Assembly (NCBI GenBank): GCA_963707915.1
Contig: OY970178.1
Span: 1,696,001-1,760,000 of the forward strand
DNA from: Candidatus Eiseniibacteriota bacterium
GTDB taxonomy: Bacteria > Eisenbacteria > RBG-16-71-46
Direction: 5' to 3'
Length of the DNA: 64,000 nucleotides
This document shows, one piece after another, positions 14,739 to 49,993 of this stretch. Below the pieces are notes generated by a model. It was given only the letters and a program-made list of their open reading frames with translations. It was not told the origin of the DNA and did not search any database. Each line of letters starts with the position of its first letter. The first letter of the stretch is position 1. The position numbers and the translations under genes were made by a program.

Positions 14739-14776
14739 TGGAAGCACTGTCACTATCTTCATCTCCAGGGGAACCC

Positions 14777-16664: not shown

Positions 16665-16689
16665 TCCGGATGAGATGAAGGTCCGGGAC

Positions 16690-16717: not shown

Positions 16718-16805
16718 CATCGGGCGCCCGCAGCGAATGAACCGTGGGGACCGGGGCTCGTTCTCCGTCCGCCCGTCCCGCCACCAGCAACCCTGAAGGA
16801 CTTCC

Positions 16806-23073: not shown

Positions 23074-25522
23074 CTACTCGAAGATGGAGAAGAAGAGGTC
23101 CACGTCCACCGTGCCGGAGAAGCCGTACAGCCCCGCCGCCGGGATGACGATCAGCGCGGGATCCTCCTCGACCAGGTACAGGTCGCCGTGGAGGAGACGG
23201 TATCCGGACTTCTCGAGGACCTCGTGCGGGAAGGTCTCGACCTGCTCGTTCCCGCCCGCGGCGCGCCGGTGCACGCGCACCCCGGTGAGCCGGAGCCGCT
23301 CGCCCGCGAGGCCGAGGGTCAGCCCGAAGCGCTGGATCGTGCCGCCGCTGACCTGCAGGCGGATCCGGTGCCAGAGGCACCCGCGGTTGTTGAGCCGGTA
23401 GGTCTCGACGCGCGCCTCCTCGGCGCGGAAGCCCAGGCCCGAGTCGTGGTAGAAGACGAGGTGGCGCGGCGGCGCGGCCGAGTCGAGCGCCTCCGGCCTC
23501 ACCGAGCGCAGGAAGATCCCCGCCACGGCCTCGCCCATCGTGCGGCTGATGCCGTGGGCGAAGCCGAACGGCCAGTAGACCTGCCGGGGCAGGAGGCTCG
23601 CCAGCTGGTGCGCCGACAGGTGGCTCCGCTCCCACTCGTGCAGGTCCGGCACCTCCGTCATGCCGTGCGCCACCGCCGAGCCGAAGTTCTCGTCGTGCAG
23701 CCAGCCGCCGAAGAGATCGAGCTCGATCTCCAGCGGCCGGGCGACCGATCGCACGCAGATGGCCTGGTAGAGGTCGCGCAGGGAACGTGTCCCGCCGACG
23801 TCGTGGGTCGCGCGGTGCCGGGCCCACTCGCGCGCCCAGAGCAGGATCCCGCGCTGGACCTCGGCGATCTGGCGGCGCTGCTCGTCGGGGACGCGGAACT
23901 CGTCGAGGACCGGCCCGCCCCGCTCGTCGTGGCCGAGGGTCGTGCCGCAATCGGCCATCAGGCTCTGTTCGAGGATCTCCGGGGACCGGATGTAGGTGTG
24001 CGCCACCGCGACGGGTTGCCCGTTCGAGGCCAGCCAGCCCTCGACGATCGCGCCGCTCGCCTGGGCGACGTGCGCCCGGTCGCCGGTCACGAGGTAGAGC
24101 CCGTGGGTGCGGAGGTCGAGGCCCTCGCGGTCGAGGATCCGCTGCAGCGCCCCCTGGATGGTGCCGTGGTAGCCGAGGTCCACGACCGCGACGCGGCGCG
24201 GCCCGCCGGGGCCCAGCACGGCAGCGACGTGGGCGAGCAGGTTGCGACGGGCGGCGGCGCTGGCCCGGACGACCTTGCCGCGTGCCGCCGGGTCGCGTGC
24301 GATGCTGCGCACCAGCGTCACCGTCTGCTCCGGCGTGAGACTCGCCCCGGCGTCCACCCAGCGGCAGGTCGGCGGGGTCGAGCCCGAGTTGGTCCAGGAG
24401 CTCCGAGCACCGCTGGGCCGAGGGACGCGAGACGAAGCGCTCGAGCTCCGCCTCGCTGCCCTCGAAGATCGCCGCCTTGAGCACGACGAATCGCGAGACG
24501 AAGAGCTCGGAGGTCCGCAGGCCCGGCGCCTGCACGTCCAGGACCTGCTTGAGGAGCCGGCCCTCGCGCATCAGGCACAGGGCGTCCGTGAGTCCCAGCT
24601 CGCCGCAGCGCTCCGCGACCCAGTCGCAGAAGCCCGAGATCACCGGCCCGGCCACCCCGGCGCCCCAGCGCTCGTATTCGCTCCCGGCCTTGAACATGAC
24701 GCGCCCGCGCAGGGCGGTCAGCCCCGCGTCGTCGCCGGGCAGGTACGGGGAGCGCTGGCTGAGGTCCGCGGGCAGTTCGGTCCCCACCATGTCCTCGTAG
24801 GCCTCGGGGAAACGCGGGAGCCAGAAGCGCGCGAGCCCGAGGCTCTCGGGACCGTCGAGGTCCGCCTGGCGGCTGTCACCGACGTGCAGGATGCGGGCGG
24901 CGGGCACGCCGCTCTGCCCCAGCAGCACCTGGTGCAGCCCCCCCGGCTTGGAGCGGCCGTGCTCGCACGAGACGATGACGTGGTCCACGTCCACGCCGGT
25001 GAGCGCGCGGATCTGCCCGCTCCGCAGGTAGGTGTCCGAGACCAGCGCGGTCCGCAGGCCCCGCTCCCGGGCGCGGGCGAGCAGGTCGCGCATCGCGGGC
25101 TCGACCACCACGTGCCGCTGCTCGAGCGCGAACTCGAGCGCGGCCACCTCGGCGGGGCTCACGCCGTCGAGGAAGCCGCGCGGGAACTCCGCGTAGATGT
25201 CCGCCAGCGCGACCTCCCCGGCGGGCGTGCGGCGCCGCGCGCGTTCCTCCGCGCGGACGCGCTCGCGCACGAAGCTCTCGCGGCTCGAGGAGTCGAAGAG
25301 GCCGCCGGCCGCGCGCACCTCGTCGGCCAGCAGCAGGAAGAGGTCCGCCGGCTGCGGCACGCGGCGCCACACCAGCGTGTCGAAGACGTCGAGGCTCAGC
25401 AGGTCGAAGTCGCCCGAGTCCACCAGGTCGTACAGCTCGCGCAGCCGCGCGTCCATGCGCGGCGCGGGCGGGCGCGGCGCATCGACGGCCAGTGACGTGC
25501 GTTCGGTGGCGCTCAGGGCCAT
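23074..25522 (-). CDS. HAD-superfamily hydrolase-like protein of glycan loci (apparent frameshift near 24358)
   Basis: LSLDVFDTLVWR, LVSDTY, HVGDS..AD, CLMREG, VDLGYHGTIQ, HDENFG; paralog of 27222-30026. Confidence 0.8.
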
Positions 25523-25800: not shown

Positions 25801-27207
25801 TCAGGCGGCGGTGACGATCCCGGTTCCGGCCGCCTCGTCCGTCCCGGCCGCGAGTCTTCGCGCCGTCTCCGGGTCGGTGCAGCGCATGCGGAGCAGGGCG
25901 GCCCGGTAAGAGGCGGCGGCCTGGACGTCGCCCGCCGCGATGGCGGAATCCCAGAGCCCCCGCAGCGCCCAGTGCGGCGGGGCACCGTGCCGCAGCGCGG
26001 CCTCGAGCGCCTCGCGCGCCCCGGCGAGATCCCGGGCGCGCAGGCGACGGAAGCCATCGACCAGTTCGGCCTCCCATCCGGCCCAGTGCGTCCCGGCCGG
26101 CAGTTCCCCGTCGGGCTCGTCCAGGGCGAGACGCGCCCGGAGCTCCGGCGTGGGCGCCAGCGCGACGGCCGCCTGCAGGTGCTCCCGCGCGGCGGCGTCC
26201 AGGCCGAGGCGGTCGCTCAGCACCCACGCCCAGCGGCGCACGTCGCCTTCGTCGGGCCACGCCTTCGGTCGTCCGAGGCAGCGCTGCACGTCGGCGTGCC
26301 GGCCCGCGGCCGCCGCGCGCTGGCACTCGGCCACGATGGCCCAGCGCTCGCGCTCCTCGGGCGAGGCGAACCGCACGCAGCGCGCGACGTCCCCGTGCTG
26401 GTCCCGGTGGCGCTGGATGCGCAGGCCGTCGCAGAAGTAGTAGTCGTCCTCGTCGGTGAGGAGCTGGTCCGCCCACCGCCGGTGGAACAGCGTCCAGTTC
26501 TCGGTCTCGTGACGCATGCGGCCCGGGGTCTGGCTCTCCAGGTGGATCAGCGAGCTCTTCGGCTGGTACACGACCAGGCCGCCGCGGCGGCGCACCGCCA
26601 GGCACAGGTCGACGTCCTCGTAGCCGGTCTGGAACTTCTCGCAGAATCCGCCGCACTCCTTGAACCAGCGTGTTCGGATCATCAGGCAGGCGCCGGTCAC
26701 GGCCTGCAGCTCCCGCCGGCGGTTGACCCGCGGGTCGTCGGCGCGCAGCAGGCGGTTCGGGTGGTACAGGTTGCGGGTCCCGCGCTCGAAGAGGATGCCC
26801 GCGTGCTGGACCAGGCCGCCCTCGTAGAGGAGCTTCGAGCCGACGACGGCGACCTCCGGGTGCGTCTGCAGCTCGTCCACCAGGCCGTCGAGCCAGCCCG
26901 GCAGGGGGATGGTGTCGTTGTTGAGGAACAGGATGTACTTCCCCGCGGCCGCGGCGGCGCCCTGGTTGCAGGCACGCCCGAAGCCGCGATTGGCGGTGTT
27001 CCGGATGACCTGGACCGGTCCCGCGCGCTGCGCGAGGCGCTGGGGCGTCGCGTCGCTCGACGCGTCGTCCACCACGATCAGCTCGAACGGCACCCGGGCC
27101 CCGACCCGGGCGATGCCGTCGAGGCACTGCAGCGTCAGCTCGCACTTGTTGAATACCGGGATGACGATGGAGACGAGCGGCGACTGGCGGCGAGGTTGCG
27201 GTTTCAT
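25801..27207 (-). CDS. Family 2 glycosyltransferase with a helical/TPR-like C-terminus
   Basis: VSIVIPVFN, IVVDDAS, LFLNNDT, VTGACL, GYEDVDLC. Confidence 0.9.
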   Translation of the reverse strand: MKPQPRRQSPLVSIVIPVFNKCELTLQCLDGIARVGARVPFELIVVDDASSDATPQRLAQRAGPVQVIRNTANRGFGRACNQGAAAAAGKYILFLNNDTIPLPGWLDGLVDELQTHPEVAVVGSKLLYEGGLVQHAGILFERGTRNLYHPNRLLRADDPRVNRRRELQAVTGACLMIRTRWFKECGGFCEKFQTGYEDVDLCLAVRRRGGLVVYQPKSSLIHLESQTPGRMRHETENWTLFHRRWADQLLTDEDDYYFCDGLRIQRHRDQHGDVARCVRFASPEERERWAIVAECQRAAAAGRHADVQRCLGRPKAWPDEGDVRRWAWVLSDRLGLDAAAREHLQAAVALAPTPELRARLALDEPDGELPAGTHWAGWEAELVDGFRRLRARDLAGAREALEAALRHGAPPHWALRGLWDSAIAAGDVQAAASYRAALLRMRCTDPETARRLAAGTDEAAGTGIVTAA

Positions 27208-27221: not shown

Positions 27222-30026
27222 CTACGCGGCCGCGCGCCCGGCGGCGAAGCCGGGCGGACGGGAGTGGGAGACGGGACTCACTTCGTCCGTCACGGGGCTG
27301 ACTTCGGGTTCCGACGAGGGCGGTTCCGCGCCGCCTGCGGAGTCCGCCACGGCGGGCATCCACTGCGAGTCGTAGACGATCTTCTCGGGCGCGTGCACGA
27401 CGACGATCCAGTTGCTCAGCTCCGCCTCGTGGCGGCCCCGCCCGTGCCAGCGGTGGAATCCGAGGTCCGTTCCGGCGGATCCGAGCCACGCCATGACGGC
27501 CGGAGCGAGCGGGTGCTCGGCCGGAACGGTCAGGCGGTCGTACCGTCCGCAGGCCAGCAGGACGGCGCCCCGCGGGCCCAGGAACGGAGCCAGCCCGTGC
27601 AGCAGCGCGGGGACCTCGGCCGCCGGCACGTCGTCGGTGAGGACCAGCGCGACGCTGGCGCCGGGATGGATCTCCGCGCGGATGCCGCGCAGCGTCGCCG
27701 CGTCGCCCAGCCCGCCGCGGACCTCCGCGCGCGAGGACTCCGCGTCCCCGGCCACCGCGGCCGGGCCGGCCCCCGCGGGGCCCGCCAGGATGAGGCGGCG
27801 CAGCGCGCACGGCACCGCCGTGTCGGGGCGCTGCGGCGTGCGCTTCACCAGCGAGACGATCTCGGGCGCCGCCGGCCCGCAGAAGACGACCTGGTCGGGC
27901 GTCAGCCCGCCCAGCAGCGCGCCGAGCGCGGCCAGTTCGTCCCCGGTCAGCGCGGTATCGGCGTTCCCCGGAGCGCCGTAGGCGCCGAGCCGCCCCATGC
28001 CCACGGGATCGTCCCAGCGCTCGCGCAGCACCGACACCAGTCGCGGGTACACCTGCGCCATGACCCCCTGGGGCCAGTAGCACCCCGGCCCCTTGAACAG
28101 GGCCTGGATGCCATCGCGGCGCAGCCGGGTGCGGGTCTGCTCGTCGCACGCCAGGGCGCTGTTGATGCTGCCGAAGTAGTTCTCGTCGTGGTAGAGGAGC
28201 GCCAGCCGGTCGGCCTCGAGCTTGGTCGGGAGGTCCATCCAGCGGAACAGGATGGCCGGCGAGAAGCCGTCGATGTCGGCGACCAGTTCGCGCGACCAGC
28301 CCCGCTCGGCGGCCCGCGCGTGGAGCGGGAGCCAGAGGTCCTGGAAGGCGAGCACGCCATCGCGCAGGCGGCCCTTCGCCACCCGCTGCGCGGGCGTGTT
28401 GGGGTCGACCTCCAGCACCGGGCGGACCCGGCCGGAGCCGTCCCGCTCGTAGCCGCAGGTGCTCCCCACGCACGCGGTGGTGCACACCTCGACCAGGATG
28501 GCGTTGCGGTTCCACTCCGGCTCGAAGTAGGCGTGCGCCTCCTGGCCCTCGAGCGCCAGGCGGCCCGCGCGCTTCGTGCAGGCCAGGTAGCAGCCCACCG
28601 TCCGGACCTCGCGCCCGCCCTGCCGCAGGATGCGCGCGATGTTGCGCTGGATGCTGCCGCTCCAGCCCAGGTCCAGCACGCCGACGGCCGGGTCGTCCCC
28701 GGCCAGCGGGGCCAGGTACTCGAACGCCAGCTCCCGGCTCTCGCGGTGACGTGACTCGATGAGCTCGCGGATGCGCGGCAGCCGGAAGATCGCGCCGAGG
28801 AACTGCAGGGCTGCGTCGGTCGAGGGCAGCGGGGTGCGCCGCCGGGCCTCGTCCATGAACTCGGCCCCCTCCGTGCCGAGGCCGAGGATCTCGAGGATGC
28901 CCTGCGGGGAGAGCTGCGCGGCGCCCTCGAGCAGCCCGGTCGCACCCGGCAGGTCCACCGCGGGCAGGGCGGCCCGGGCCGTGGCCATGCGGGAGGCGTA
29001 GCAGGTCTCGACCTGCAGCGGGATCCCGCGCGCCGCGGCCGACCGCGCCACCAGCTCGCCGAGCAGCTCGCCTTCGCGCATCAGGGCCAGCACGCGCCGC
29101 ACCCCCGCCCGGGCGTAGGTCTCGACGCACCAGTCGGCGAAGCGCGACAGCACCGGGCCGAGCACGAACGCCCCGTCGCGGAACGGGTCGTGGTCGCCGT
29201 CGGCCTGGCGCGCGGCGAGCAGGCGCAGCGGCTCGAGCGAACCGGCGCGCGGCCGCACGGGGCCCGACAGCTTCCGCTCCCCGCTCAGCGCCGCGCCCAG
29301 CGCGGGCGTGCTGCGGCGGTAGTGGAGCGCGTCCAGGCCGAGCCGGCGCGCCTGGTGCACGTCGACTTCCAGGTTGTCCCCGACATGGAGCACCTCGCCC
29401 GGGCACGCCTCGAAGCGCTGGAGCAGCTCGTGGTAGAGCGTCCCCTGGTGCCACTTGGCCTTGCCCAGCTCGCAGGAGACCAGCACGTCGTCGAACAGCG
29501 CGGCCGGCACGCCCTGCTCGCCGAGCATCTGCAGCAGCTCGGCGGCGGAGAAGTAGGTGTCCGAGACGATGGCCGTGCGGCAGCCGAGCGCGCGCACGTG
29601 CTCGGCCAGCGACACCATGGCCGGGTTCACGAAGGAGAGTCCGCGCTCGATGGAGAACTCGACGGCCCGCGCTGCGGCCGGATCGGTGACGACGTCGCCC
29701 AGCCCGGCATAGATCTCGTCCAGCGTGACCTCGGGCACCCGGCCCGCGGCGAGGCGCGCGCCGCGCACCCGCTCGTCCGCGGCGATGCGCGCCGACCGGT
29801 ACTCCGGCGGGGTGAACGCGGCCCGCAGGAGTCCCCGCTCGGCGAGCTGGCGCCCGGTCTCGATGAACAGGTCCGATGGTTCCGCACACAGGCGGAACAG
29901 CAGCGTGTCGAAGAAGTCGAACGAGACGAGCCGGGGCAGGACCGCTCCCGGCGCCAGGCGGTCCGCGAGCGGCCGGAGGCACTCGTCCCGCATCCAGTCT
30001 GCTCCCGTGCGCTCAACGTTCGGCAT
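27222..30026 (-). CDS. HAD-superfamily hydrolase-like protein (934 aa)
   Basis: VSFDFFDTLLFR, IVSDTY, HVGDNLEVD, ALMREG, LDLGWSGSIQ, HDENYFG. Confidence 0.82.
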   Translation of the reverse strand: MPNVERTGADWMRDECLRPLADRLAPGAVLPRLVSFDFFDTLLFRLCAEPSDLFIETGRQLAERGLLRAAFTPPEYRSARIAADERVRGARLAAGRVPEVTLDEIYAGLGDVVTDPAAARAVEFSIERGLSFVNPAMVSLAEHVRALGCRTAIVSDTYFSAAELLQMLGEQGVPAALFDDVLVSCELGKAKWHQGTLYHELLQRFEACPGEVLHVGDNLEVDVHQARRLGLDALHYRRSTPALGAALSGERKLSGPVRPRAGSLEPLRLLAARQADGDHDPFRDGAFVLGPVLSRFADWCVETYARAGVRRVLALMREGELLGELVARSAAARGIPLQVETCYASRMATARAALPAVDLPGATGLLEGAAQLSPQGILEILGLGTEGAEFMDEARRRTPLPSTDAALQFLGAIFRLPRIRELIESRHRESRELAFEYLAPLAGDDPAVGVLDLGWSGSIQRNIARILRQGGREVRTVGCYLACTKRAGRLALEGQEAHAYFEPEWNRNAILVEVCTTACVGSTCGYERDGSGRVRPVLEVDPNTPAQRVAKGRLRDGVLAFQDLWLPLHARAAERGWSRELVADIDGFSPAILFRWMDLPTKLEADRLALLYHDENYFGSINSALACDEQTRTRLRRDGIQALFKGPGCYWPQGVMAQVYPRLVSVLRERWDDPVGMGRLGAYGAPGNADTALTGDELAALGALLGGLTPDQVVFCGPAAPEIVSLVKRTPQRPDTAVPCALRRLILAGPAGAGPAAVAGDAESSRAEVRGGLGDAATLRGIRAEIHPGASVALVLTDDVPAAEVPALLHGLAPFLGPRGAVLLACGRYDRLTVPAEHPLAPAVMAWLGSAGTDLGFHRWHGRGRHEAELSNWIVVVHAPEKIVYDSQWMPAVADSAGGAEPPSSEPEVSPVTDEVSPVSHSRPPGFAAGRAAA

Positions 30027-31749
30027 GGCCTGCCCCCTCGCTCCCGGAAGCCACGCGCGGGCCCGATGGCCCCGGTCCGCGGCGCGCGGCGATGACGTAC
30101 TGCAGGCCCACGTAGCCGTAGTGCGGCGCCGTGAACAGCGTGATCTCGACCTCCTGGAAACCGGCCGCGCGCAGCTCGTCGAGCAGGTCCCAGCCGAAGT
30201 CGTGGAGACGTTCCGCGGCGGGCCCGGGCTGCGGACCCGCCTTCCCGGCGCACGCGTCCGCGCCGCCGGCGTCGCCGCGCGAGAGCGTTTCGGTCCGTTC
30301 GAAGAAGAACGGGACGGTGAGCGCGAACCAGGCGCCCGGGCGCAGGCAGCGCGCGAACTCCCGCAGGGCGCGCCGGTAGTCGGGCACGCGCTCGAGGAGA
30401 TCGAGGGTGAGGATCGCGTCGAAGGCCCCGTCGGGGAACGTCAGCTGCGTGACGTCCTCGTTGCGGATCCCGCCGGGCGCGCGCCGCCCGAGCGGTACGC
30501 CCGCCCCCTGGTAGGCGGCGGTCACCGCGCGCGGGAAGAAGGTCCGGACCCGGTCGAACACCGGGCCGGGGTCGGTGCAGAAGACCACCGAGCCGGAGCC
30601 GAGCCCCGGCAACTGGGTGAGCAGGTGGACGCTCGAGCGATGCCGGGCGTTCAGGCCGCACCGGCAGACCTGGCGCTCGCGCCACACCGGCAGCCGCCGG
30701 CCGGCCGCGGCCGGTTCGGCGAAGCGGTAGTCGGTGGTGAACCGGCCCGGCTGGCCGCAGACCACGCAGAAGCCGGGCAACTGGAACTCCTTGCCCTCCG
30801 GCGGGGCCAGCGGTTCCTGCTCGCGCAGCCGGGTCGAGAGCCGCTGCGCGAACAGCCGGTCGAAGGCCGGCTTGCTCTCGACCGAGAAGACCTCGAGCAG
30901 GTGCGGTCCCCAGAGGTATCCCGCGGCGACCGCCGGGGTCTTCCGGTCCTCGTGCAGCTCGCGCAGGGCCATGCAGACCAGCTGGGTGCGGTTGCGCTCC
31001 ATCCGCTCGATCAGCGGGTTGCCGGCGAGCGGTCGGAGCAGCTCGGCGATCGCCGGGGCCCAGGCCGCGTCGCGCGAGTAGACGATCCCGAGACCGAAGA
31101 TCGCCGGGATCACCTCGAAGCAGAGCTCCGGGTGTCCCGCCATGAAGTCCTCGATCGCCGTCTTGACCCCGTTGCGCGGCCCGCCGGCCGCGACGGCGAT
31201 GCCGAACCCCGCCCCGTCGCCCCAGCCGCCCGGGACGAGCCCCGGCTGGTCGAAGCCCACTCCGCCATCATGGGAGTACGGCTGCCGCGCGTGCTCCGGG
31301 ATGCGGTCCGGGGCGTAGTACAGGTCGCGCCGGCCCCACGGCCACTCCACGTCGTGCTCGAAGACCAGCAGTGGCCGGCCCTCGCTCCGCTGGCGCGCGG
31401 CGATGAGCTCGAGCTCCTCGCGCACGGTGTGGTAGTTGTGATCGCCGTCGATGATGTGGGCGTCGATCCCGGCCAGCGTGCCCAGCGCCTCCAGGCTCGC
31501 CTGCTCGAGGAACCGGAAGTGCGGATCGTCGCGGTGCCGCGCGAAGAACTCCAGGGCGTGCGGCTGCGGGGCCGGGTCGATGGTGATGAGCTGCCCGCCG
31601 GTACGGCGCGCGTGGTCGCACAGCTCCTGCGTGAACGCCCCGTACTCGGCGCCGATCTCCGCGATGCGCCGCGCCCCGGCCCGGGCGAGCGCCTCGAGCA
31701 GGATCTCGCGGAAGCAGACGAGTGAGTAGAGGAACGGGGAATCCGTCAT
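30013..31749 (-). CDS. Two-domain class I SAM-dependent methyltransferase
   Basis: N-domain IAEIGAEYG..IIDGDHNY..FEHD..NGVKTAIEDF; C-domain FCVVCG..CRCGLNAR..EDVTQLTFPDGAFD..LRPG. Confidence 0.8.
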   Translation of the reverse strand: MTDSPFLYSLVCFREILLEALARAGARRIAEIGAEYGAFTQELCDHARRTGGQLITIDPAPQPHALEFFARHRDDPHFRFLEQASLEALGTLAGIDAHIIDGDHNYHTVREELELIAARQRSEGRPLLVFEHDVEWPWGRRDLYYAPDRIPEHARQPYSHDGGVGFDQPGLVPGGWGDGAGFGIAVAAGGPRNGVKTAIEDFMAGHPELCFEVIPAIFGLGIVYSRDAAWAPAIAELLRPLAGNPLIERMERNRTQLVCMALRELHEDRKTPAVAAGYLWGPHLLEVFSVESKPAFDRLFAQRLSTRLREQEPLAPPEGKEFQLPGFCVVCGQPGRFTTDYRFAEPAAAGRRLPVWRERQVCRCGLNARHRSSVHLLTQLPGLGSGSVVFCTDPGPVFDRVRTFFPRAVTAAYQGAGVPLGRRAPGGIRNEDVTQLTFPDGAFDAILTLDLLERVPDYRRALREFARCLRPGAWFALTVPFFFERTETLSRGDAGGADACAGKAGPQPGPAAERLHDFGWDLLDELRAAGFQEVEITLFTAPHYGYVGLQYVIAARRGPGPSGPRVASGSEGAGHAER

Positions 31750-31824
31750 CGTGCGGGTCTCCCTGGCGATCGCGCGCATGCCCTGCCGCGGCGTGGTCGT
31801 GCCTGCGGCCCGGTGCCCGGAAAC

Positions 31825-31839
31825 GCAACATCCGGGCCA
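31825..31839 (-). promoter_or_regulatory. sigma54 promoter of the methyltransferase-HAD-GT2 operon
   Basis: Minus strand TGGCCCGGATGTTGC (GG-N10-GC). Confidence 0.72.
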
Positions 31840-31997
31840 TGACGGACCGCAGGACGTGCCGCCCGCCTCGTGCCCGGGCCCGTTCGAATGCGGCAGGTGC
31901 TTCGCTGCGCGGCCGTTCGCACCGTCCGGCCGGGCACCCGGGTGCGCCGGACGCCGGTGGCCGCCCGGGCCAGCGCCCCGGAGGAGCGGGCTCGCCC

Positions 31998-32103
31998 CGG
32001 CAAGTCCTGCCGGAGGGTGGCGGCATCCCCGGCCGGTGCCGCGCCGATGGCGCCTCCCAAGTGACGGCCACCGCGCGGCTCGACGCCCTGTCACGTCTCT
32101 TGC
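31998..32103 (+). promoter_or_regulatory. Activator site CGGCAAGTCCTGCCG plus variant sigma54 promoter TGTCACGTCTCTTGC (32089-32103)
   Basis: The same blocks are conserved upstream of the paralog at 37405-37510. Confidence 0.6.
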
Positions 32104-32131
32104 TTGAGTCGGCTGCGGGAGGAACCCTGAC

Positions 32132-34870
32132 ATGAAGACTACGAGCCTGATCGTCGCGGGGACGCCGTTCTCTGGGGCCGCGCTGCTGGGGCACGTGCTG
32201 GGAGCGCATTCGCAGGCGTTCTTCGCCGGCGAGCTGTGGCGGCAGTGGGACGCCGCCGCGGGGCCGGGGGCGCGCGAGTGCCGCAGCTGCGCCGGGGAGT
32301 GCGCGACCTGGAACGCACCGGCGGTCACGGCGGCGGTGGCGGAGGGCCCGGCGGCGGTGGTGGCCGCGCTGGCGGCGACCACCGGGCGGCGGCTGGTGAT
32401 CGAGGGTCCGGCCTCGGCGAGCTGGCTGACGGCCCGGCTGGCCTACGGGGCGGCGAGCGGCGAGGACACGCGGGTGGTGGTGTGCGTGTGCGACCCGCTG
32501 CTCTACGTGCGCAAGCGCGCGGGGGTGACCGAGGAGTACGCGCGGCGGCGGGTGGCGGAGTGGCGCGAGCAGCAGGAGGCGCTGGTGAACGCCGGGCTGG
32601 CGTCGGGCCGTCCGCTGCTGGTGGTGCGCTACGAGGACCTGGTGGCGCAGCCGGAGGCGACGCTGGCACGGGTCTGCGCGTTCAGCGGGCTGGAGCTCGA
32701 AGCGGCACTCACCGAGTGGTGGGAGGCGCCGACCCACGCGATCGGGGCGAAGACGGAAGCCTGGGGGGTGGCCGAGCCGCTGCGCGCGAACCGGGGCGCG
32801 GCGCCGCCGGGCAACCCGAAGGAGAGCCGGGTGGAGACCATGCCGGCGCAGGACCGCGACCCGGGCGGCTCGCTGGGCCCGGAGATCGCGCGGGCGGTGA
32901 TCGTCGAGCTGCGGCCGAGCGGGCTGTACCAGCGGTTCGGCTACGCGCCGACGCTGCCACCCTGGCGCGCGCCGCGCGACGAGGGCGAGCGCGAGAAGAC
33001 GGCGGCCTGGGTGCGGGAGGACCTCCAGGGGGTGCGCGCGGCGGTGCTGGCCGGGCGCGCGGTGGAGGCGATCGACACGCTGCGGTTGCTGGTGGACCAC
33101 TTCGGCCCGGGGTTCGACGAGCTCGGGCTGGAGCTGCGCTACGCGAACCTGGCGAGCGTGCTGGTGGACCTGCTCAACCACCAGCAGCGCGGGGCGGAGG
33201 CGCTGCCCTACGCGCGGGCGCTGGCGGAGCACGTGCCGCAGGACGTCGAGGCGCAGCGGCTGCTGGCGGTGGCGGGGACCGGCGCCGGCGACGTGCCGGC
33301 GGCGCTGCAGGCGTACGGGCGGCTGGTGCGGATGAACGGCGCGGCCGGGGCGGTGGCGGAGACGCTGGCGCAGGACATCGCCGCCCTGCTGGTGAGCGCG
33401 GGGCGCGGCACGGCGGGCGTGCCGGCGTTCCTCGGCGCGCTGGCGGAGCACGCGGAGCTGGCGGCGGCGGTCGACACCACGCTGGCGGCGCGCCTGCAGG
33501 GCGGCGACCGCGCCGAGGGCGTCTACGCCGCCCTCGACGCCGTGCGCGAGGCCCGCGGACTGCCGCTTCCCCCCCACGCGCCCCCGGACTACCTCCTCAT
33601 CGCCCTGACGAACCGCTGCAACTACGGCTGCTTCTTCTGCTGCGCCGAGAACGCGCGGGCGGACCTGTCCCGGACGCACCTGCCCATCGAGCGGCTCCAC
33701 GCCCTGCGCCCCGCCATCGAGAGCGCCGGGGTCGTGGACCTGTCCAGCCCGGGCGAGGTGTTCCTCTACCCCCACGCCCGCGAGGCGATGGCGTTCGTCG
33801 CCGAGCACAACCGGAACCGCGGGTTCCAGATCACGACCAACGGCGCCCTGCTGACCGAGGACATGATCGGCCCGGTCGCCTCGCGGATCGATCAGATCAC
33901 GGTCTCGCTGAACGCGTCGACCCCCGGGACCTACGCGCGCGACATGCGTTCGAGGCACTGGGAGCGGGTCCTTTCGAACATCCGCGCCGCCCGGCGACTG
34001 GTGGCGCGTGAACGCATCACCCTCAGCTGCGTGACGCACGCCGGCAACGTCCACGAGCTTCCCGGCCTGGTGCGCCTGGCCGCGGAGCTCGACGTCTGGC
34101 ACGTCCGGATCGTTCCGATCCGCGTGACCAAGCCGGAGCTGATCCGCAGCAGCCTGTGGTTCTGCAAGGAGAAGTCACAGGACCTCATCGCGGAAGCCCA
34201 GCGGATCGGCAGGGAGCGCGGCGTCACCGTCAACAACCTCTACGAGGCCGTCCGGAACATGTCGTCCTCCACGGGAAGGCGATGCGTCATCCCGACCTGG
34301 GGCGCCTACATCTCGATGGACGGCAACGTGGCCGCCTGCTGCCACAGCAGCCAGGTCATGGGCAACGTCCACGAGGCCGGCGGATTCGAGGCGGTCTGGA
34401 ACGGCGACCGGTACCGGGAACTGAGGAAGCACCTCTACTTCCCCGAATGCCCCGAATGCCCCAACGTCCGCGGGAAGGACATGGAGCGGCTGGACAGCCA
34501 CCTCGATTGCCAGTTCGGCGACCGCGCGCCGCTGCCGCTGATCTCCGTGGCCGTGAAGACCCCGGCCAGCGCCAGGCAGTTGCGCTCCGCGGTCTCGTGC
34601 CTCAAGCACCAGACCTACCCGGTGTGGGAGGCCATCCTGGAGGTGGACGAGGACGGTGACCCGGCGATCCTCCAGGCGGCACGGGAGGAGGCGGAGGCCG
34701 ATCCCAGGATCCGGTGCGGTGTCGCGGGCGGCGGGACCGCTCGCCAACTCGTGGGCGCCCCGTCGGGCGCGATATCGACCTGCCGCATGGACCCGGCGCG
34801 CCAGTTCAAGCCCAACGAGCTGGAGGTGCACCTGCGAAGCTTCGACTGCTTCGCGGAGACCGCGGCCTGA
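32132..34870 (+). CDS. Sulfotransferase-like + TPR-like + radical SAM/SPASM + GT2-like remnant fusion protein
   Basis: VVRYEDLVAQPE sulfotransferase fold; LTNRCNYGCFFC (CxxxCxxC), ITTNG, C..DGNVAACC..CPEC; PLISVAV..QTYPVWE. Confidence 0.82.
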   Translation: MKTTSLIVAGTPFSGAALLGHVLGAHSQAFFAGELWRQWDAAAGPGARECRSCAGECATWNAPAVTAAVAEGPAAVVAALAATTGRRLVIEGPASASWLTARLAYGAASGEDTRVVVCVCDPLLYVRKRAGVTEEYARRRVAEWREQQEALVNAGLASGRPLLVVRYEDLVAQPEATLARVCAFSGLELEAALTEWWEAPTHAIGAKTEAWGVAEPLRANRGAAPPGNPKESRVETMPAQDRDPGGSLGPEIARAVIVELRPSGLYQRFGYAPTLPPWRAPRDEGEREKTAAWVREDLQGVRAAVLAGRAVEAIDTLRLLVDHFGPGFDELGLELRYANLASVLVDLLNHQQRGAEALPYARALAEHVPQDVEAQRLLAVAGTGAGDVPAALQAYGRLVRMNGAAGAVAETLAQDIAALLVSAGRGTAGVPAFLGALAEHAELAAAVDTTLAARLQGGDRAEGVYAALDAVREARGLPLPPHAPPDYLLIALTNRCNYGCFFCCAENARADLSRTHLPIERLHALRPAIESAGVVDLSSPGEVFLYPHAREAMAFVAEHNRNRGFQITTNGALLTEDMIGPVASRIDQITVSLNASTPGTYARDMRSRHWERVLSNIRAARRLVARERITLSCVTHAGNVHELPGLVRLAAELDVWHVRIVPIRVTKPELIRSSLWFCKEKSQDLIAEAQRIGRERGVTVNNLYEAVRNMSSSTGRRCVIPTWGAYISMDGNVAACCHSSQVMGNVHEAGGFEAVWNGDRYRELRKHLYFPECPECPNVRGKDMERLDSHLDCQFGDRAPLPLISVAVKTPASARQLRSAVSCLKHQTYPVWEAILEVDEDGDPAILQAAREEAEADPRIRCGVAGGGTARQLVGAPSGAISTCRMDPARQFKPNELEVHLRSFDCFAETAA
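32141..33565 (+). repeat. Left arm of a 1425-bp near-identical inverted repeat (partner 35934-37358)
   Basis: The translations are identical over about 475 aa except one V/A change; a few silent differences are visible by eye. Confidence 0.96.
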
Positions 34871-34969
34871 CGCAGGGGCCGCGCCCCGGGGAACACCCCG
34901 CGTCGTCAGCCGGCCGAAGGCGGTGATCCGGTTCGCGCAGACTGCGGCCCGACGCAGGGGCCGCGCCCC
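34850..34969. repeat. 38-bp direct repeat (34850-34887 and 34932-34969, 35/38 identical)
   Basis: TTCGCGGAGACCGCGGCCTGACGCAGGGGCCGCGCCCC versus TTCGCGCAGACTGCGGCCCGACGCAGGGGCCGCGCCCC. Confidence 0.88.
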
Positions 34970-35015
34970 ATGGGCGGGCCAGGGGCGTCGTCTCCTGATC
35001 CTCGAAAGCCGGTGA

Positions 35016-37367
35016 CTACGCCCTGGCGGAGAAGACGAAGAGGGGCATCCCGCCGTGACCTTGCCAGGGGCCCCAGTAGAGGTGCGCCGCGGCCTGCGAG
35101 AAACCCGCGGCCCTCAGCTCGTCGAGGACGTCCCAGCCCAGGTGGTGGAAGCACAGGCAGCCGTCGCCCACGGGATTGCCGTGGTACTCGGGCGCCCGCA
35201 CGTGCTCGAGCGTCCCATCCGGCCGCACGCGGGCGATGGTCTCGGTCGCGGGCTGCCAGGAGAAGAACGGGATCGAGAACGCCATGCAGCCGCCCGGCGC
35301 CAGGACGCGCCGGCTCTCGCGGAAGGCCTTGCGGAAGTCCGGAATGTGCTCGAAGACGTCCTGCGTGATCACGACGTCGAGGCTCTCCGAGGCGAACGAC
35401 AGGTCGGTGTGGTCCTCGTGCCGGATCCGCAGGTTGTTGCGCAGGCACTCCTGGCCCGGGGCCAGGCCCCGACCCAGGTACTCGCTGCCGACCAGGTTCG
35501 GGAAGCGCGACCGGTAGATCCGGTAACCGTGCGTGACCTGCTCGGCCAGGTAGATGCGCGCGGTGGGCGGAACCTGCAGCTCCTCGGTGAGGAGGGCGTA
35601 GAGGGCCCGCATCCGGCTGTTGAACCCGCAGGACGGGCAGATGAAGGTCTCCGTCCACGAGGGGTTGAAGGACCCCGCCTCGGTGACCTCGCCGTACTTC
35701 CAGCTCACGTTCATCATCTGCGGGGCGCCGCACACCGCGCACCAGGCCTTCACGGCGTGTGCGTGACGTGAGCGCATCAGCTGGTCGTCGAGGGTGTCCC
35801 CCACGGCCATCAGCGCGTCGGCGTCATGGGAACGCGCCTGCCAGGCCGCGTGGCTCTCGAACCGCCCCAGCCAGATGGAAGGGAAGAGACTCGTGCGCGC
35901 TCGCAGGTAGTCGGGAGGCGAGTGAGGGCAGAACGGCAGTCCCCGGGCCTCGCGCACGGCGTCGAGGGCGGCGTAGACGCCCTCGGCGCGGTCGCCGCCC
36001 TGCAGGCGCGCCGCCAGCGTGGTGTCGACCGCCGCCGCCAGCTCGGCGTGCTCCGCCAGCGCGCCGAGGAACGCCGGCACGCCCGCCGTGCCGCGCCCCG
36101 CGCTCACCAGCAGGGCGGCGATGTCCTGCGCCAGCGTCTCCGCCACCGCCCCGGCCGCGCCGTTCATCCGCACCAGTCGCCCGTACGCCTGCAGCGCCGC
36201 CGGCACATCGCCGGCGCCCGTCCCCGCCACCGCCAGCAACCGCTGCGCCTCGACGTCCTGCGGCACGTGCTCCGCCAGCGCCCGCGCGTAGGGCAGCGCC
36301 TCCGCCCCGCGCTGCTGGTGGTTGAGCAGGTCCACCAGCACGCTCGCCAGGTTCGCGTAGCGCAGCTCCAGCCCGAGCTCGTCGAACCCCGGGCCGAAGT
36401 GGTCCACCAGCAACCGCAGCGTGTCGATCGCCTCCACCGCGCGCCCGGCCAGCACCGCCGCGCGCACCCCCTGGAGGTCCTCCCGCACCCAGGCCGCCGT
36501 CTTCTCGCGCTCGCCCTCGTCGCGCGGCGCGCGCCAGGGTGGCAGCGTCGGCGCGTAGCCGAACCGCTGGTACAGCCCGCTCGGCCGCAGCTCGACGATC
36601 ACCGCCCGCGCGATCTCCGGGCCCAGCGAGCCGCCCGGGTCGCGGTCCTGCGCCGGCATGGTCTCCACCCGGCTCTCCTTCGGGTTGCCCGGCGGCGCCG
36701 CGCCCCGGTTCGCGCGCAGCGGCTCGGCCACCCCCCAGGCTTCCGTCTTCGCCCCGATCGCGTGGGTCGGCGCCTCCCACCACTCGGTGAGTGCCGCTTC
36801 GAGCTCCAGCCCGCTGAACGCGCAGACCCGTGCCAGCGTCGCCTCCGGCTGCGCCACCAGGTCCTCGTAGCGCACCACCAGCAGCGGACGGCCCGACGCC
36901 AGCCCGGCGTTCACCAGCGCCTCCTGCTGCTCGCGCCACTCCGCCACCCGCCGCCGCGCGTACTCCTCGGTCACCCCCGCGCGCTTGCGCACGTAGAGCA
37001 GCGGGTCGCACACGCACACCACCACCCGCGTGTCCTCGCCGCTCGCCGCCCCGTAGGCCAGCCGGGCCGTCAGCCAGCTCGCCGAGGCCGGACCCTCGAT
37101 CACCAGCCGCCGCCCGGTGGTCGCCGCCAGCGCGGCCGCCACCGCCGCCGGGCCCTCCGCCACCGCCGCCGTGACCGCCGGTGCGTTCCAGGTCGCGCAC
37201 TCCCCGGCGCAGCTGCGGCACTCGCGCGCCCCCGGCCCCGCGGCGGCGTCCCACTGCCGCCACAGCTCGCCGGCGAAGAACGCCTGCGAATGCGCGCCCA
37301 GCACGTGCCCCAGCAGCGCGGCCCCCGAGAACGGCGTCCCCGCGACGATCAGGCTCGTGTCTTCCAT
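35016..37367 (-). CDS. Sulfotransferase-like + TPR-like + class I methyltransferase fusion protein
   Basis: Same N-terminus as 32132-34870; C-domain WCAVCG..CPSCGFNSR..HEDHTDLSFASESLDVVITQDVFEHIPD..LAPGG..PEYHGNP. Confidence 0.85.
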   Translation of the reverse strand: MEDTSLIVAGTPFSGAALLGHVLGAHSQAFFAGELWRQWDAAAGPGARECRSCAGECATWNAPAVTAAVAEGPAAVAAALAATTGRRLVIEGPASASWLTARLAYGAASGEDTRVVVCVCDPLLYVRKRAGVTEEYARRRVAEWREQQEALVNAGLASGRPLLVVRYEDLVAQPEATLARVCAFSGLELEAALTEWWEAPTHAIGAKTEAWGVAEPLRANRGAAPPGNPKESRVETMPAQDRDPGGSLGPEIARAVIVELRPSGLYQRFGYAPTLPPWRAPRDEGEREKTAAWVREDLQGVRAAVLAGRAVEAIDTLRLLVDHFGPGFDELGLELRYANLASVLVDLLNHQQRGAEALPYARALAEHVPQDVEAQRLLAVAGTGAGDVPAALQAYGRLVRMNGAAGAVAETLAQDIAALLVSAGRGTAGVPAFLGALAEHAELAAAVDTTLAARLQGGDRAEGVYAALDAVREARGLPFCPHSPPDYLRARTSLFPSIWLGRFESHAAWQARSHDADALMAVGDTLDDQLMRSRHAHAVKAWCAVCGAPQMMNVSWKYGEVTEAGSFNPSWTETFICPSCGFNSRMRALYALLTEELQVPPTARIYLAEQVTHGYRIYRSRFPNLVGSEYLGRGLAPGQECLRNNLRIRHEDHTDLSFASESLDVVITQDVFEHIPDFRKAFRESRRVLAPGGCMAFSIPFFSWQPATETIARVRPDGTLEHVRAPEYHGNPVGDGCLCFHHLGWDVLDELRAAGFSQAAAHLYWGPWQGHGGMPLFVFSARA
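35934..37358 (-). repeat. Right arm of the 1425-bp inverted repeat (partner 32141-33565)
   Basis: The reverse complement matches the left arm. Confidence 0.96.
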
Positions 37368-37404
37368 GGCGGATCCCCCTCCGGCTTCCGGTCACTTCGT
37401 GTAC

Positions 37405-37510
37405 GCAAGAGGCGTGACAGGAACCGAACCGGCGCGGGGGCCGTCACTTGGGAGGCTTCATGGACGCACCACCGGCCGGGGATGCCGCTTCGCCCCGGCA
37501 GGACTTGCCG
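37405..37510 (-). promoter_or_regulatory. Activator site (37496-37510) plus variant sigma54 promoter TGTCACGCCTCTTGC (37405-37419)
   Basis: Homologous to 31998-32103. Confidence 0.6.
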
Positions 37511-37606
37511 GGGCGGTCGTGGAGGCGTGACGGGGAGGCCGGGCTCATGGGGATCATCACGGGCTCCCGGCCTGCCGCGGGCCGGTGCTCGTCCCGCCCT
37601 CGGCGA

Positions 37607-42880
<5,274 letters not shown>

Positions 42881-48567: not shown

Positions 48568-48735
48568 GCCGGCACCGCCGGCGCGGACGCGCGCTCCCCG
48601 CGCGCCGGGTCCCGCGCCCCGGCGCGTTGTGTGCCACCAACCGCCCCGCCACGCACCCGCCGCGCCCCGCAGGCGACCCCGCGTGGACCGGGCACGCCTG
48701 CTGCGCTACGCTCGGGACCGAGCGAGGCGCGGCCC

Positions 48736-49989
48736 ATGCATCCTTCTTCCACGACCACCCGCCGTGACTTCCTGCTGAGGACCTGCGCGGCCTGCGGGGC
48801 CCTGATGGCAGGGAGCCCATGGCTCCCCGTGTCCCCGGAACGGTTCCCGCTCTCGCCCCGGCCGGCCTTCGCCGCGGGCGACCCGCTCGCCGGGCTCCTG
48901 CGCACCGCGCCGCGGGCGCGCTACTGGGCGTCGACCGCGCCCGCGGGCGGCAGCGACTGCGCCGCCTGTCACCCGGCGGGCTCGCTCCGCGCCGGCGCGA
49001 AGCCCGCGCACCGGCGCACGCTCGTCCGCTGCCTGCTCTGCGCGCGCGGCTGCACGCTGGCCGAGGGCGAGCGCGGCATGTGCCGCGCGCGCATCCACGT
49101 GAACGGCGAGCTGCGCAGCCTGGTCTACGGGCGGCCCATGGCCATCCACGTGGACCCGATCGAGAAGAAGCCGTTCTTCCACTTCCTGCCGGGCGCCGCG
49201 GCGTACTCGCTGGCGACCAGCGGCTGCCCGCTGCGCTGCAAGTTCTGCCAGAACTGGGAGATCTCGCAGGCCCGCCCCGAGGACTACGCCCAGGCACCGC
49301 TGCCCGCGGCGAACCTCGCGCGCGCCGCGGTCGACCGGGGAGCGCGGGTCATCGCCTTCACCTACAACGAGCCGACGGTCTTCACCGAGTACCTGACCGA
49401 CGTCGCGCGGGCCGGCCGGCCGCTCGGCCGTCGCGCGGTGCTGGTCTCGTGCGGCTACATGAACGAGGCGCCGCTGGCCGAGATGTGCGGGGTGCTCGAT
49501 GCCGTCAAGGTGGATCTCAAGGGGTTCAGCGAGGACTTCTACCGTGACGTGTGCGGGGCGGAGCTGAAGCCGGTGCTGCGCAGCATCCGGCAGGTGGCGA
49601 AGAGCGGCGTTCACCTCGAGATCGTGAACCTCGTGGTGCCCACGCTCAACGACTCGCCGCGGATGCTGAGCGAGCTGGCGAAGTGGGTCGTGGGCGAGGT
49701 CGGGCCCGACGTGCCGGTCCACTTCACGCGCTTCCACCCCGACTACCAGTTGACCCACCTCCCCGACACGCCGGTGGCCACGCTCGAGCGCGCGCGGGAG
49801 ACCGGCCTGCAACAGGGCCTGCGCTTCGCGTACGTCGGCAACGTGCCGGGGCACCCGGGGAACCACACCTACTGTCCGAAGTGCGGCCGGGCGGTGATCG
49901 AGCGCGACGGGCTGTTCGTGACCGGGATGCACTTGAAGGACGGGCACTGCGAGTACTGCGGCCGCGCCATCCCGGGCGTGTGGAGCTGA
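48736..49989 (+). CDS. amrS: AmmeMemoRadiSam radical SAM enzyme with a twin-arginine-like N-terminus
   Basis: DPIEKKPFFHFLPG, GCPLRCKFCQNWEISQ, AFTYNEP, RFHPDY, YVGNVPG..TYCPKCG; N-terminal TRRDFL. Confidence 0.92.
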   Translation: MHPSSTTTRRDFLLRTCAACGALMAGSPWLPVSPERFPLSPRPAFAAGDPLAGLLRTAPRARYWASTAPAGGSDCAACHPAGSLRAGAKPAHRRTLVRCLLCARGCTLAEGERGMCRARIHVNGELRSLVYGRPMAIHVDPIEKKPFFHFLPGAAAYSLATSGCPLRCKFCQNWEISQARPEDYAQAPLPAANLARAAVDRGARVIAFTYNEPTVFTEYLTDVARAGRPLGRRAVLVSCGYMNEAPLAEMCGVLDAVKVDLKGFSEDFYRDVCGAELKPVLRSIRQVAKSGVHLEIVNLVVPTLNDSPRMLSELAKWVVGEVGPDVPVHFTRFHPDYQLTHLPDTPVATLERARETGLQQGLRFAYVGNVPGHPGNHTYCPKCGRAVIERDGLFVTGMHLKDGHCEYCGRAIPGVWS

Positions 49990-49993
49990 CGCG

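Follow-up and report, generated by a model that had tools for sequence, protein, structure and literature searches.

Genes A and B, a convergent pair, are best read as old paralogs whose front halves have been homogenised by gene conversion, and we put the probability of this reading at roughly 0.8. The pair lies in the window, i.e., the whole 64,000-nucleotide stretch of DNA that was analysed, and the positions below refer to it.

30013 to 31749, minus strand: gene3, a two-domain methyltransferase (Methyltransf_24 and Methyltransf_11 by Pfam), divergent from gene A
31993 to 32131, plus strand: region upstream of gene A, homologous to its gene B counterpart, with the palindrome CCGGCAAGTCCTGCCGG at 31997-32013 and the element TGTCACG-N4-TTGC at 32089-32103
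32132 to 34870, plus strand: gene A, 912 aa; sulfotransferase-fold and TPR part (residues 1-478), radical SAM, SPASM and an unassigned C-terminal stretch of about 110 aa
32141 to 33565, plus strand: core arm in gene A, codons 4-478, perfect over 32362-33259, with nine differences from the arm in gene B
33566 to 33594, plus strand: diverged end of the homology in gene A, codons 479-488 (LPPHAPPDYL), older than the core and bounding the conversion tracts
34850 to 34969, no strand: region between the convergent stop codons, with a 38-nt direct repeat (34850-34887 and 34932-34969, 92%, 82 nt apart)
35016 to 37367, minus strand: gene B, 783 aa; sulfotransferase-fold and TPR part (residues 1-478), a Cys-rich segment and a Methyltransf_11 tail
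35934 to 37358, minus strand: core arm in gene B; the extended arm, from 35905, takes in the diverged junction FCPHSPPDYL
37368 to 37515, minus strand: upstream region of gene B, with the same palindrome at 37495-37511 and TGTCACG-N4-TTGC at 37405-37419

A repeat search recovered extended inverted arms of 1454 nt (32141-33594 and 35905-37358) that are 99% complementary and spaced by 2310 nt, as well as a second inverted pair of 111 nt at 82% in the upstream regions (31993-32103 and 37405-37515). In the position-by-position comparison of the 1425-nt core, exactly nine mismatches were found, at 32173, 32203, 32361, 33260, 33280, 33292, 33322, 33454 and 33556, so the inverted repeat that an earlier, sequence-only reading had described exists as it was drawn, including its count of about nine differences made by eye. 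The clustering of these differences toward the core ends, which the same reading had noticed, is real, because the central 898 nt contain none and a perfect run of at least this length had P = 0.0014 when nine differences were placed at random on 1425 sites in a simulation. Eight of the differences are synonymous and the ninth is V77A. Outside the core, the modules differ at residues 2-3 (KT in A, ED in B) and at the junction, where LPPHAPPDYL stands against FCPHSPPDYL as had been reported and where the arms have eight more mismatches (33566-33594). The upstream regions, correctly described as homologous but diverged, are 83.9% identical over 112 nt. In the source genome, a single 3.62-Mb contig, the module is present in exactly two copies, those of genes A and B.

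The same convergent pair was found in a relative that is represented by two metagenome contigs, L003 and L004, whose name prefixes differ (Ga0315275 and Ga0315286). L003 runs from the gene3 flank through the N-terminal module and the radical SAM tail to the facing methyltransferase tail and its module; L004 has this layout entered from the other flank, and in the middle the two contigs are 99.96% identical over 2787 nt. Their flanks show synteny with the source genome, and both junction sequences recur. Since the pair, both tails and both junctions are common to the two lineages, the duplication predates their split (dS of about 0.43). The module copies are 99.0% identical at the nucleotide level within the source genome (full 1434 nt; 99.4% in the 1425-nt core) and 83.5-83.8% between the lineages, and the dS of the front halves is 0.020 within the source genome compared with 0.43-0.44 between the lineages. 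The two assembled copies of the relative are 99.93% identical, which is an upper bound because short-read metagenome assembly may collapse a repeat. Judged by these figures, the paralogs appear far closer to each other within a genome than the orthologs are between lineages, as would be expected of gene conversion.

The trees and the alignment pointed in the same direction. The winA+winB clade had 100/100 support in both the protein and the DNA trees, and an AU test against a clade of the two methyltransferase-linked copies, a group that was named only after the first tree had been seen, gave a lnL difference of 634 and a p-AU of 4.2e-7. In alignment A4, both lineages show grouping by genome through codon 478 and, starting at codon 479, grouping by tail type; such a sharp breakpoint with a switch to grouping by paralog type would be the other signature of gene conversion. 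The tails are orthologous between the lineages, with nucleotide identities of 85.4% (radical SAM) and 79.7% (methyltransferase). The upstream regions diverge in the source genome, whereas the relative's copies share 136 identical nt upstream; the ends of the conversion tracts therefore differ between the lineages. The sequence-only reading had deduced homogenisation by gene conversion from a near-identical core inside diverged flanks, and the same grouping in the relative strengthens that deduction. Only two lineages carry the pair, and the argument from concerted evolution therefore rests on n = 2.

We propose that the pair goes back to an ancestral duplication of about 140 nt of upstream sequence together with the first 488 codons, which would have encoded a tyrosylprotein-sulfotransferase-like fold and then a TPR domain, and that each copy came to carry a SAM-dependent tail of its own: radical SAM/SPASM in A, a predicted class I methyltransferase in B. 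RecA-type homologous recombination between the inverted copies, the pathway that we infer, would then have repeatedly overwritten one front half with the other, the last tract probably spanning at least the central 898 nt. Under such recurrent conversion the front halves evolve in concert, while the junctions, the tails and the upstream regions of the source genome diverge. Rare RecA-type inversions are a likely by-product of this exchange: crossovers between the arms would occasionally invert the 2.3-kb middle, with next to no effect, since the same two genes would be rebuilt behind near-equivalent upstream regions.

Every reading of the pair requires one conversion or more. Nine differences would be compatible with one recent event, and the relative's copies may have been collapsed by short-read assembly, so that a single very recent duplication or a one-off conversion could be considered, with the relative taken as an independent event or an assembly collapse. 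We regard this as improbable, given that the shared pair, tails and junctions place the duplication before a split with a dS of about 0.43, against 0.020 for the cores, that differences at both edges of an unbroken centre point to two or more tracts that differ in age, and that each contig of the relative breaks off within the second copy once 119 or 108 nt have matched perfectly, as expected of a true long repeat. Less probable still is an artefact in which a segment was falsely duplicated or joined as a hairpin. Both junctions and the convergent layout were assembled independently in L003/L004, from a relative that is about 84% identical in nucleotides and syntenic in the flanks; moreover, both ORFs are intact, with a GC3 of 0.96 each, and most of the substitutions that separate the copies are synonymous.

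Programmed inversions include the phage Mu G segment with Gin, the R64 shufflon and hsdS switching. Their repeats are short, a single gene is expressed while its spare parts stay silent, and different protein variants result. The A/B pair is like them in that inverted repeats lie within facing CDSs and inversion would put a different 3' part behind an unchanged 5' part. It is unlike them in that it lacks a recombinase, its arms are 1.43 kb long, both genes are complete with an upstream element of their own, and inversion would return the same two proteins. The sequence-only reading had proposed a candidate invertible cassette, in which inversion would swap the tails between the promoters and change relative dosage. 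As a functional cassette, the pair would invert frequently between the arms, with two differently regulated promoters exchanging tails and the dosage of the two enzymes varying across the population. The geometry fits the candidate definition given by Milman, Yelin and Kishony 2023 (PMC9881135) for gene-altering programmed inversions, i.e., opposite-strand, tail-to-tail CDSs with inverted repeats near their 5' ends and a flanked region below 15 kb, since the arms here lie inside genes A and B, 2310 nt apart; the upstream regions of the source genome do differ, and according to the same paper some invertible regions have no nearby recombinase.

A programmed invertible cassette is nevertheless not supported, and we hold a functional one to be unlikely. 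The scanned ORFs of the window had no match to a Pfam recombinase domain, in agreement with the sequence-only reading, and none occurs in the relative's flanks; in the whole genome, the nearest Phage_integrase match (PF00589) lies about 130 kb away from the pair (C1:1598207), and the sole Resolvase match (PF00239) is at C1:3354744, so a nearby recombinase appears to be missing. The arms are long coding homology rather than short recombinase sites. Because genes A and B are complete, inversion would rebuild the same two proteins except for residues 2, 3 and 77, and would probably not yield different protein variants. Both upstream regions keep the invariant element and the palindrome, and in the relative, with 136 identical nt upstream, inversion would leave the DNA over that distance from the start codons unchanged. 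Six public runs had shares of only 0.05-0.09; the four that were aligned gave scattered short pieces on the locus, none of which spanned an arm or a junction with at least 31 nt on both sides, and apparent read joints, whose sides have 22-24 letters at 90% likeness, were taken as noise. L003 and L004 fit the reference orientation, although the assembly path through the repeat may be arbitrary. When facing genes share a long in-frame inverted repeat, genome scans should not take this alone as evidence of a switch.

Gene conversion between old inverted paralogs, the reading we prefer, has a close counterpart in tufA/tufB of Salmonella. According to PMC8262849, in which Abdulkarim and Hughes 1996 and Hughes 2000 are cited as the primary tufA/tufB papers, the inverted tuf genes co-evolve via RecA- and RecB-dependent recombination, and up to a quarter of the events give inversions (5/59 in the kan cassette system of that paper). 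As proposed for our pair, inverted paralogs are kept near-identical there by homologous recombination, with inversion as a by-product and no site-specific recombinase. Unlike the tuf genes, A and B are homogenised only in the 5' 60% and have unrelated enzyme domains in their 3' parts; the copies are 2.3 kb apart compared with hundreds of kb, and inversion would exchange gene tails rather than a chromosome arc. The mechanism is thus a textbook one, found here in an uncharacterised modular enzyme family. The case is unusually clean in that conversion is confined to one module, with an identical end codon in both lineages and no effect on the unrelated tails.

The domain calls made earlier for the two tails were confirmed by Pfam. 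Gene A matched Radical_SAM (PF04055, E 2.4e-12) and SPASM (PF13186, E 1.9e-10), and its CX3CX2C cluster motif is CNYGCFFC at residues 496-503; no NCBIfam equivalog reached its cut-off for this protein. A GT2-like remnant suspected by eye at the C-terminus of gene A had no Pfam match even at E <= 10. The gene B tail matched Methyltransf_11 (PF08241, E 2.8e-12), covering only profile positions 36-95 of 95. Gene3, whose start was taken as 31749 (alternative start 31779), is 33% identical to this tail over 244 aa (BLASTP, E 3e-36), and its C-terminal half can be considered an old paralog of it. GT2, HAD and methyltransferase genes are among the neighbours of the pair, a kinase gene lies at 37.6 kb, and a flagellar cluster is adjacent; the neighbouring 934-aa HAD protein had no usable match in the ESM Atlas. 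The sequence matches of the tails in the PDB were all weak, both for radical SAM (BlsE 9.4e-6, PqqE 5.3e-5, BtrN 7e-4) and for the methyltransferase (E of about 3e-5), and they do not discriminate a sugar from a peptide substrate. The glycan-tailoring role proposed before is unproven, having been drawn only from the neighbours, and the best structural matches of the module itself are protein tyrosine sulfotransferases, followed by TPR.

Sulfotransfer_3 (PF13469) was above its cut-off in both proteins (E 2.8e-10 for A and 2.3e-10 for B), and both had a weak TPR_16 match. The AlphaFold2 model of the shared module had a pLDDT of 92.6, and in Foldseek the best matches of its residues from about 1 to 290 were to TPST2, TPST1 and the ST domain of CurM, with probability 1.00 and E from 1.6e-5 to 6e-5; the PDB entries for TPST1/TPST2 and the CurM/OLS domains are 3ap1-3ap3, 5wrj, 4gbm and 4gox. 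In this model the module takes a predicted sulfotransferase fold and most resembles a tyrosylprotein sulfotransferase with TPR, and it shares its fold with TPST1/TPST2 and the CurM/OLS sulfotransferases at a sequence identity of 14-20%. Wider sequence matches of the module have the motifs xSGSTLLG and (R/K)xP-x5-S, which we take to serve PAPS binding (phosphosulfate-binding loop, 3'-phosphate-binding motif); the counterparts in the subfamily are FSGAALLG and CDP-x5-R. In the window protein and seven of its eight closest relatives, (F/Y)SG(A/S)A(L/V)LG replaces SGSTLLG (P0007 has FSGATWLG), and CDP-x5-R replaces (R/K)xP-x5-S in the window protein and in all of the closest relatives but P0008, so the module appears to lack the motifs of a PAPS-dependent sulfotransferase. 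The altered motifs, a conserved Cys triad (C50, C53 and C57) and the fused TPR domain make sulfotransferase activity of the module seem doubtful.

A symmetric dimer of the module was predicted with a score of 0.68 against 0.01 for the best control; at least 76% of the contacts agreed between model runs, with a partner pLDDT of at least 79. Among proteins solved as pairs, 20 of 30 reached the dimer mark, as did 1 of 23 solved as single chains; these counts hold only roughly here, since the alignment was one made for this analysis. Tyrosylprotein sulfotransferases are dimers, and the pass may mirror likeness to their solved dimers rather than a property of the module itself. If the dimer forms, enzymes A and B could pair with each other, in which case identity of the module could be favoured by selection; the heterodimer idea is optional, as neutral gene conversion would suffice without selection. 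It is conceivable, if rather doubtful, that the module is a catalytically degenerate unit for dimerising and targeting, which unites the radical SAM enzyme and the methyltransferase as mixed dimers on a single common substrate, and that selection for a matched dimer or docking surface acts through gene conversion to keep it identical in both genes. On this view the substrate may be a protein rather than a glycan, in the light of the TPR domain, the fold like that of protein sulfotransferases and the adjacent flagellar cluster.

Other tails on this N-terminus, which the sequence-only reading had suggested looking for, do occur. Among the 14 sequences of the front-half tree, the module was followed by radical SAM/SPASM, a B-type, gene3-type or TylF-type methyltransferase, SPASM-then-radical SAM, radical SAM without a SPASM match, or no Pfam tail; the family relative G048 has SPASM-then-radical SAM too. 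Across relatives, five or more kinds of tail may thus plug into the module as into a socket, and the earlier idea of exchangeable tails holds on the evolutionary time scale. The pair illustrates how uniformity of a common module, putatively for docking or dimerising, can be maintained while the enzyme domains attached to it are exchanged in evolution. It also draws attention to an uncharacterised enzyme family that was rare in the searches run here: 13 representatives of 1.84 billion had E < 1e-30, and 2 of 101 other genomes of the order carried the module. None of 40 related genomes had it at E <= 0.001, and a scan of genome contigs with a single protein found nothing; with alignment A1, one partial MAG contig (L010) was recovered.

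In the upstream regions, CTGTCACG followed by one variable base and CTCTTGC was unchanged in all seven aligned sequences, and both the palindrome and TGTCACG-N4-TTGC occur in the source genome only at these two sites; in gene A, 28 nt separate the end of the latter element from the ATG. The sigma-54 consensus is TGGCACG-N4-TTGC. The element agrees with it at 10 of 11 specified positions, with GT in place of GG, and a sigma-54 promoter may be considered as a lead only: the degenerate pattern had 33 matches in the genome compared with about 42 estimated by hand from base composition, i.e., no enrichment, and no similar element was seen by eye upstream of the flagellin genes. No sigma-70 promoter was predicted at the locus, and Rfam gave no match in 31500-38000 at E <= 1. 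Terminator-like sites numbered one, with 1.1 expected. The 38-nt direct repeat between the genes takes in the last 21 nt of gene A, and each copy contains a GGGGC-CGC-GCCCC hairpin.

The convergent genes A and B share their front half, the N module (residues 1-478).

Features of the pair and its neighbourhood (window coordinates)
Further left: flagellar cluster (FliM, FliL, FlgE, FlgD, FliI, FliH, FliG, FliF, FliE, a sigma-54 activator, two flagellins, FlbT, FlaF)
23074-24570, minus: 498-aa protein without family, upstream of gene A
25801-27207, minus: GT2 glycosyltransferase, upstream of gene A
27222-30026, minus: HAD-domain protein, 934 aa, upstream of gene A
30013-31749, minus: gene3, Methyltransf_24 and Methyltransf_11, upstream of gene A
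31997-32013: palindrome, gene A
32089-32103: TGTCACG-N4-TTGC element, gene A
32132-34870, plus: gene A, 912 aa; Sulfotransfer_3, weak TPR match, Radical_SAM, SPASM (Pfam)
35016-37367, minus: gene B, 783 aa; first 478 residues as in gene A, Methyltransf_11 tail (Pfam)
37405-37419: TGTCACG-N4-TTGC element, gene B
37495-37511: palindrome, gene B
37607-42880: hybrid histidine kinase, 1757 aa (dCache, four PAS, HisKA, two receivers, Hpt)
Right of the kinase gene: alpha-glucan phosphorylase-like gene

A repeat search returned inverted arms at 32141-33594 and 35905-37358 (1454 nt, 99% complementary, spacing 2310 nt) and a weaker upstream pair at 31993-32103 and 37405-37515 (111 nt, 82%). The base-by-base comparison of the core (32141-33565) counted nine differences, three in the first 221 nt, six in 33260-33556 and none in the 898 nt of 32362-33259; a perfect run of at least 898 nt has P = 0.0014 if nine differences fall randomly on 1425 sites. 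This aligns well with the sequence-only reading, which had described a shared N-terminal repeat with about nine differences toward its ends, followed by a radical SAM/SPASM tail on one gene and a methyltransferase tail on the other, as the Pfam matches confirmed. Eight of the nine core differences are synonymous and the remaining one is V77A, while residues 2-3 are KT in the gene A protein and ED in that of gene B. Eight further mismatches fall in 33566-33594, and past that point the arms are no more alike than random sequence; the codon comparison reproduced the diverged junction as it had been described, LPPHAPPDYL in gene A versus FCPHSPPDYL in gene B. NCBIfam equivalogs gave no match above cut-off for either protein. 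An 82-nt tandem duplication (34850-34969; 38-nt units, 92% alike) spans the stop codon of gene A, and each unit contains a GGGGC-CGC-GCCCC hairpin; both hairpins lie within the 145-nt gap of the convergent genes and may be bidirectional terminators.

Exactly two module copies were found in the whole genome, which is a single contig (C1) of 3.62 Mb. In its self-comparison, the pair including the upstream part aligned over 1615 nt at 96.7%, and numerous further repeats appeared, most of them belonging to multi-copy families of 1.1-1.3 kb. Outside the window, C1:1245766-1252204 also holds closely spaced paralogs, in a 2.6-kb direct tandem repeat (95% identity, copies 1.2 kb apart).

Two metagenome contigs of a relative, L003 and L004, agree at 99.96% over 2787 nt and come from one organism. 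The left part of L003 carries the 498-aa gene, GT2, HAD, gene3 and an N module with a radical SAM tail, and its end a facing methyltransferase tail with the final 41 codons of a second N module; L004 runs from the phosphorylase to an N module with a methyltransferase tail, facing a radical SAM tail with the final 37 codons of another N module at the contig end. Judging by this gene order, the organism has the convergent pair of the window, arranged in the same way. The contigs break off after 119 or 108 nt perfectly identical to the other copy, as expected for a de Bruijn assembler re-entering a long exact repeat. Over 1434 nt, a single difference separates the two assembled copies, with 136 nt upstream identical, and all eight differences of the arms fall in a stretch of about 31 nt at the junction; the identity of 99.93% is an upper bound, because the assembly may have collapsed the copies. 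The kinase gene is absent at the corresponding place in the relative (L004:1-4454), and hence an insertion or deletion adjoins the gene pair.

Between the lineages, nucleotide identity was 83.5-83.8% for the module, 85.4% for the radical SAM tails and 79.7% for the methyltransferase tails. The dS was 0.020 between the window's two copies compared with 0.43-0.44 between lineages, and these two copies formed a clade with 100/100 support in both the protein and the DNA trees; the AU test rejected a clade of the two methyltransferase-linked copies, a group chosen once the first tree was known (p-AU 4.2e-7). In the junction alignment, grouping was by genome through codon 478 and switched to tail type at codon 479, a position shared by both lineages. 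Because the front halves group by genome and the tails and junctions by type, the pair predates the lineage split, and its front halves have since been homogenised in each lineage. In the window genome, the homogenised stretch ends at the start codon, the upstream DNA being 83.9% identical, homologous yet diverged as had been noticed, while in the relative the tract extends over the 136 nt upstream; thus, the tract ends differ between lineages. The near-identical core, the dS values, the breakpoint at codon 478/479 and the clade all point to gene conversion between the front halves, which had been suggested and is well supported. The conversion mechanism is ordinary.

The upstream regions also have conserved features. 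In all seven that were aligned (both window copies, L003, L004 and three further contigs with module homologues, L005, L006 and L008, from several lineages), an invariant element reads CTGTCACG, one variable base, then CTCTTGC; in gene A, 28 nt separate its end from the ATG. The six sequences that extend about 75 nt above the element (L005 is cut off) all keep a palindrome there, CCGGCAAGTCsTGCCGG in form. Both motifs are confined to two sites in the genome, upstream of genes A and B, which carry the same conserved, putative control element. As a lead only, the element looks like a sigma-54 -24/-12 promoter, except that the -24 GG reads GT, and the spacing of element and palindrome is like that of such a promoter and its upstream activator site.

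The sequence-only reading had also proposed the pair as a candidate invertible glycan-tailoring cassette. Recombination between inverted repeats yields conversions, and inversions in a fraction of events, and therefore rare inverted molecules would be expected at the pair. According to PMC8262849, inversions made up to a quarter of recombination events between tuf genes, which were RecA- and RecB-dependent, and five of 59 events in a kan cassette system. As for orientation, six sequencing runs were found with shares of only 0.05-0.09, and the four examined gave short pieces only, none bridging. Gene-altering programmed inversions have repeats that are short, and a single expressed gene accompanied by silent spares; neither was seen at the window's pair. 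Nor are the usual features of such systems, as described in PMC9881135, all present there. Moreover, no recombinase family was matched among the scanned window ORFs (Pfam), as had been stated; the sole Resolvase match in the genome is at C1:3354744 and the nearest Phage_integrase match at C1:1598207, about 130 kb from the pair. After an inversion, both proteins would be regained with only three residues changed, behind upstream regions with the same conserved element, and the functional consequence would probably be small. The invertible cassette is unsupported and the glycan-tailoring role unproven; gene conversion remains the preferred reading.

The module is rare in the sequences searched. 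Among 1.84 billion representatives there were 360 matches at E <= 0.001, only 13 of them reaching E <= 1e-30; it was absent from all 40 related genomes searched and occurred, in single copy, in only two of 101 other genomes of the order.

Tails of protein search matches (P) and of family relatives with the module (G)
Methyltransf_11, B-type: P0001
Methyltransf_11, gene3-type: P0005
Radical SAM and SPASM: P0002
TylF-type methyltransferase: P0004
SPASM then radical SAM: P0007, P0015, G048
Radical SAM, no SPASM match: P0010
No Pfam tail found: P0003, P0006, P0008, P0009, G056

P0015 matches the TPR half of the module only (query residues 252-476), without a Sulfotransfer_3 match. Since close matches carry the same module with different tails, the proposed exchangeability of tails holds over evolutionary time. 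In another lineage (L006:4324-6435 and L008), the gene3 flank precedes a single N-module gene with a gene3-type methyltransferase tail, 44% identical to the C-terminal half of gene3; L006 covers the whole gene, with no radical SAM partner or second module copy, and L008 stops 106 codons into the module. The C-terminal half of gene3 is 33% identical to the gene B tail.

The AlphaFold2 model of residues 1-478 (61-row alignment) had a mean pLDDT of 92.6 and a pTM of 0.88. Its best PDB matches (E 1.6e-5 to 6e-5) were human tyrosylprotein sulfotransferases 2 and 1 and the sulfotransferase domains of CurM and OLS, and its C-terminal half matched TPR proteins, e.g., O-GlcNAc transferase. The window protein and most of the relatives closest to it depart from the wider sequence matches in two motifs, presumably the two PAPS-binding motifs of sulfotransferases (FSGAALLG versus xSGSTLLG; CDP-x5-R versus (R/K)xP-x5-S), which makes catalytic competence doubtful. 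The two-copy complex prediction passed (score 0.68 versus 0.01 for the best control; at least 76% of contacts agreeing between runs; partner pLDDT at least 79), at a mark that 20 of 30 proteins solved as pairs, but one of 23 solved as single chains, also attained, counts that hold only roughly because our own alignment was the input. Resemblance to solved sulfotransferase dimers may account for the pass. The predicted interface (residues 112, 152-166, 180-184 and 264-270) lies wholly inside the perfectly identical tract, and hence mixed A-B dimers would be as feasible as homodimers. The shared module could possibly be a dimerising or targeting scaffold. This possibility, an uncharacterised modular enzyme family and the sharp boundary, conserved in two lineages, that limits conversion to the module make the locus of modest interest.

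In the neighbourhood, tblastn cross-matches with the relatives' loci revealed a common region, about 30% identical, in the 934-aa HAD protein and the 498-aa protein; the stretch of roughly 700 residues that follows the HAD domain matched no Pfam family and had no usable match in the ESM Atlas. The genes for FlbT and FlaF, which regulate flagellin synthesis, follow two tandem flagellin genes at 14732-17562, about 5 kb from the GT2/HAD/methyltransferase operon, and a sigma-28-like sequence was seen by eye upstream of the first flagellin gene. At 48568-50920, a radical SAM gene directly precedes a Memo-like gene that overlaps it, a pairing known from AmmeMemoRadiSam systems.
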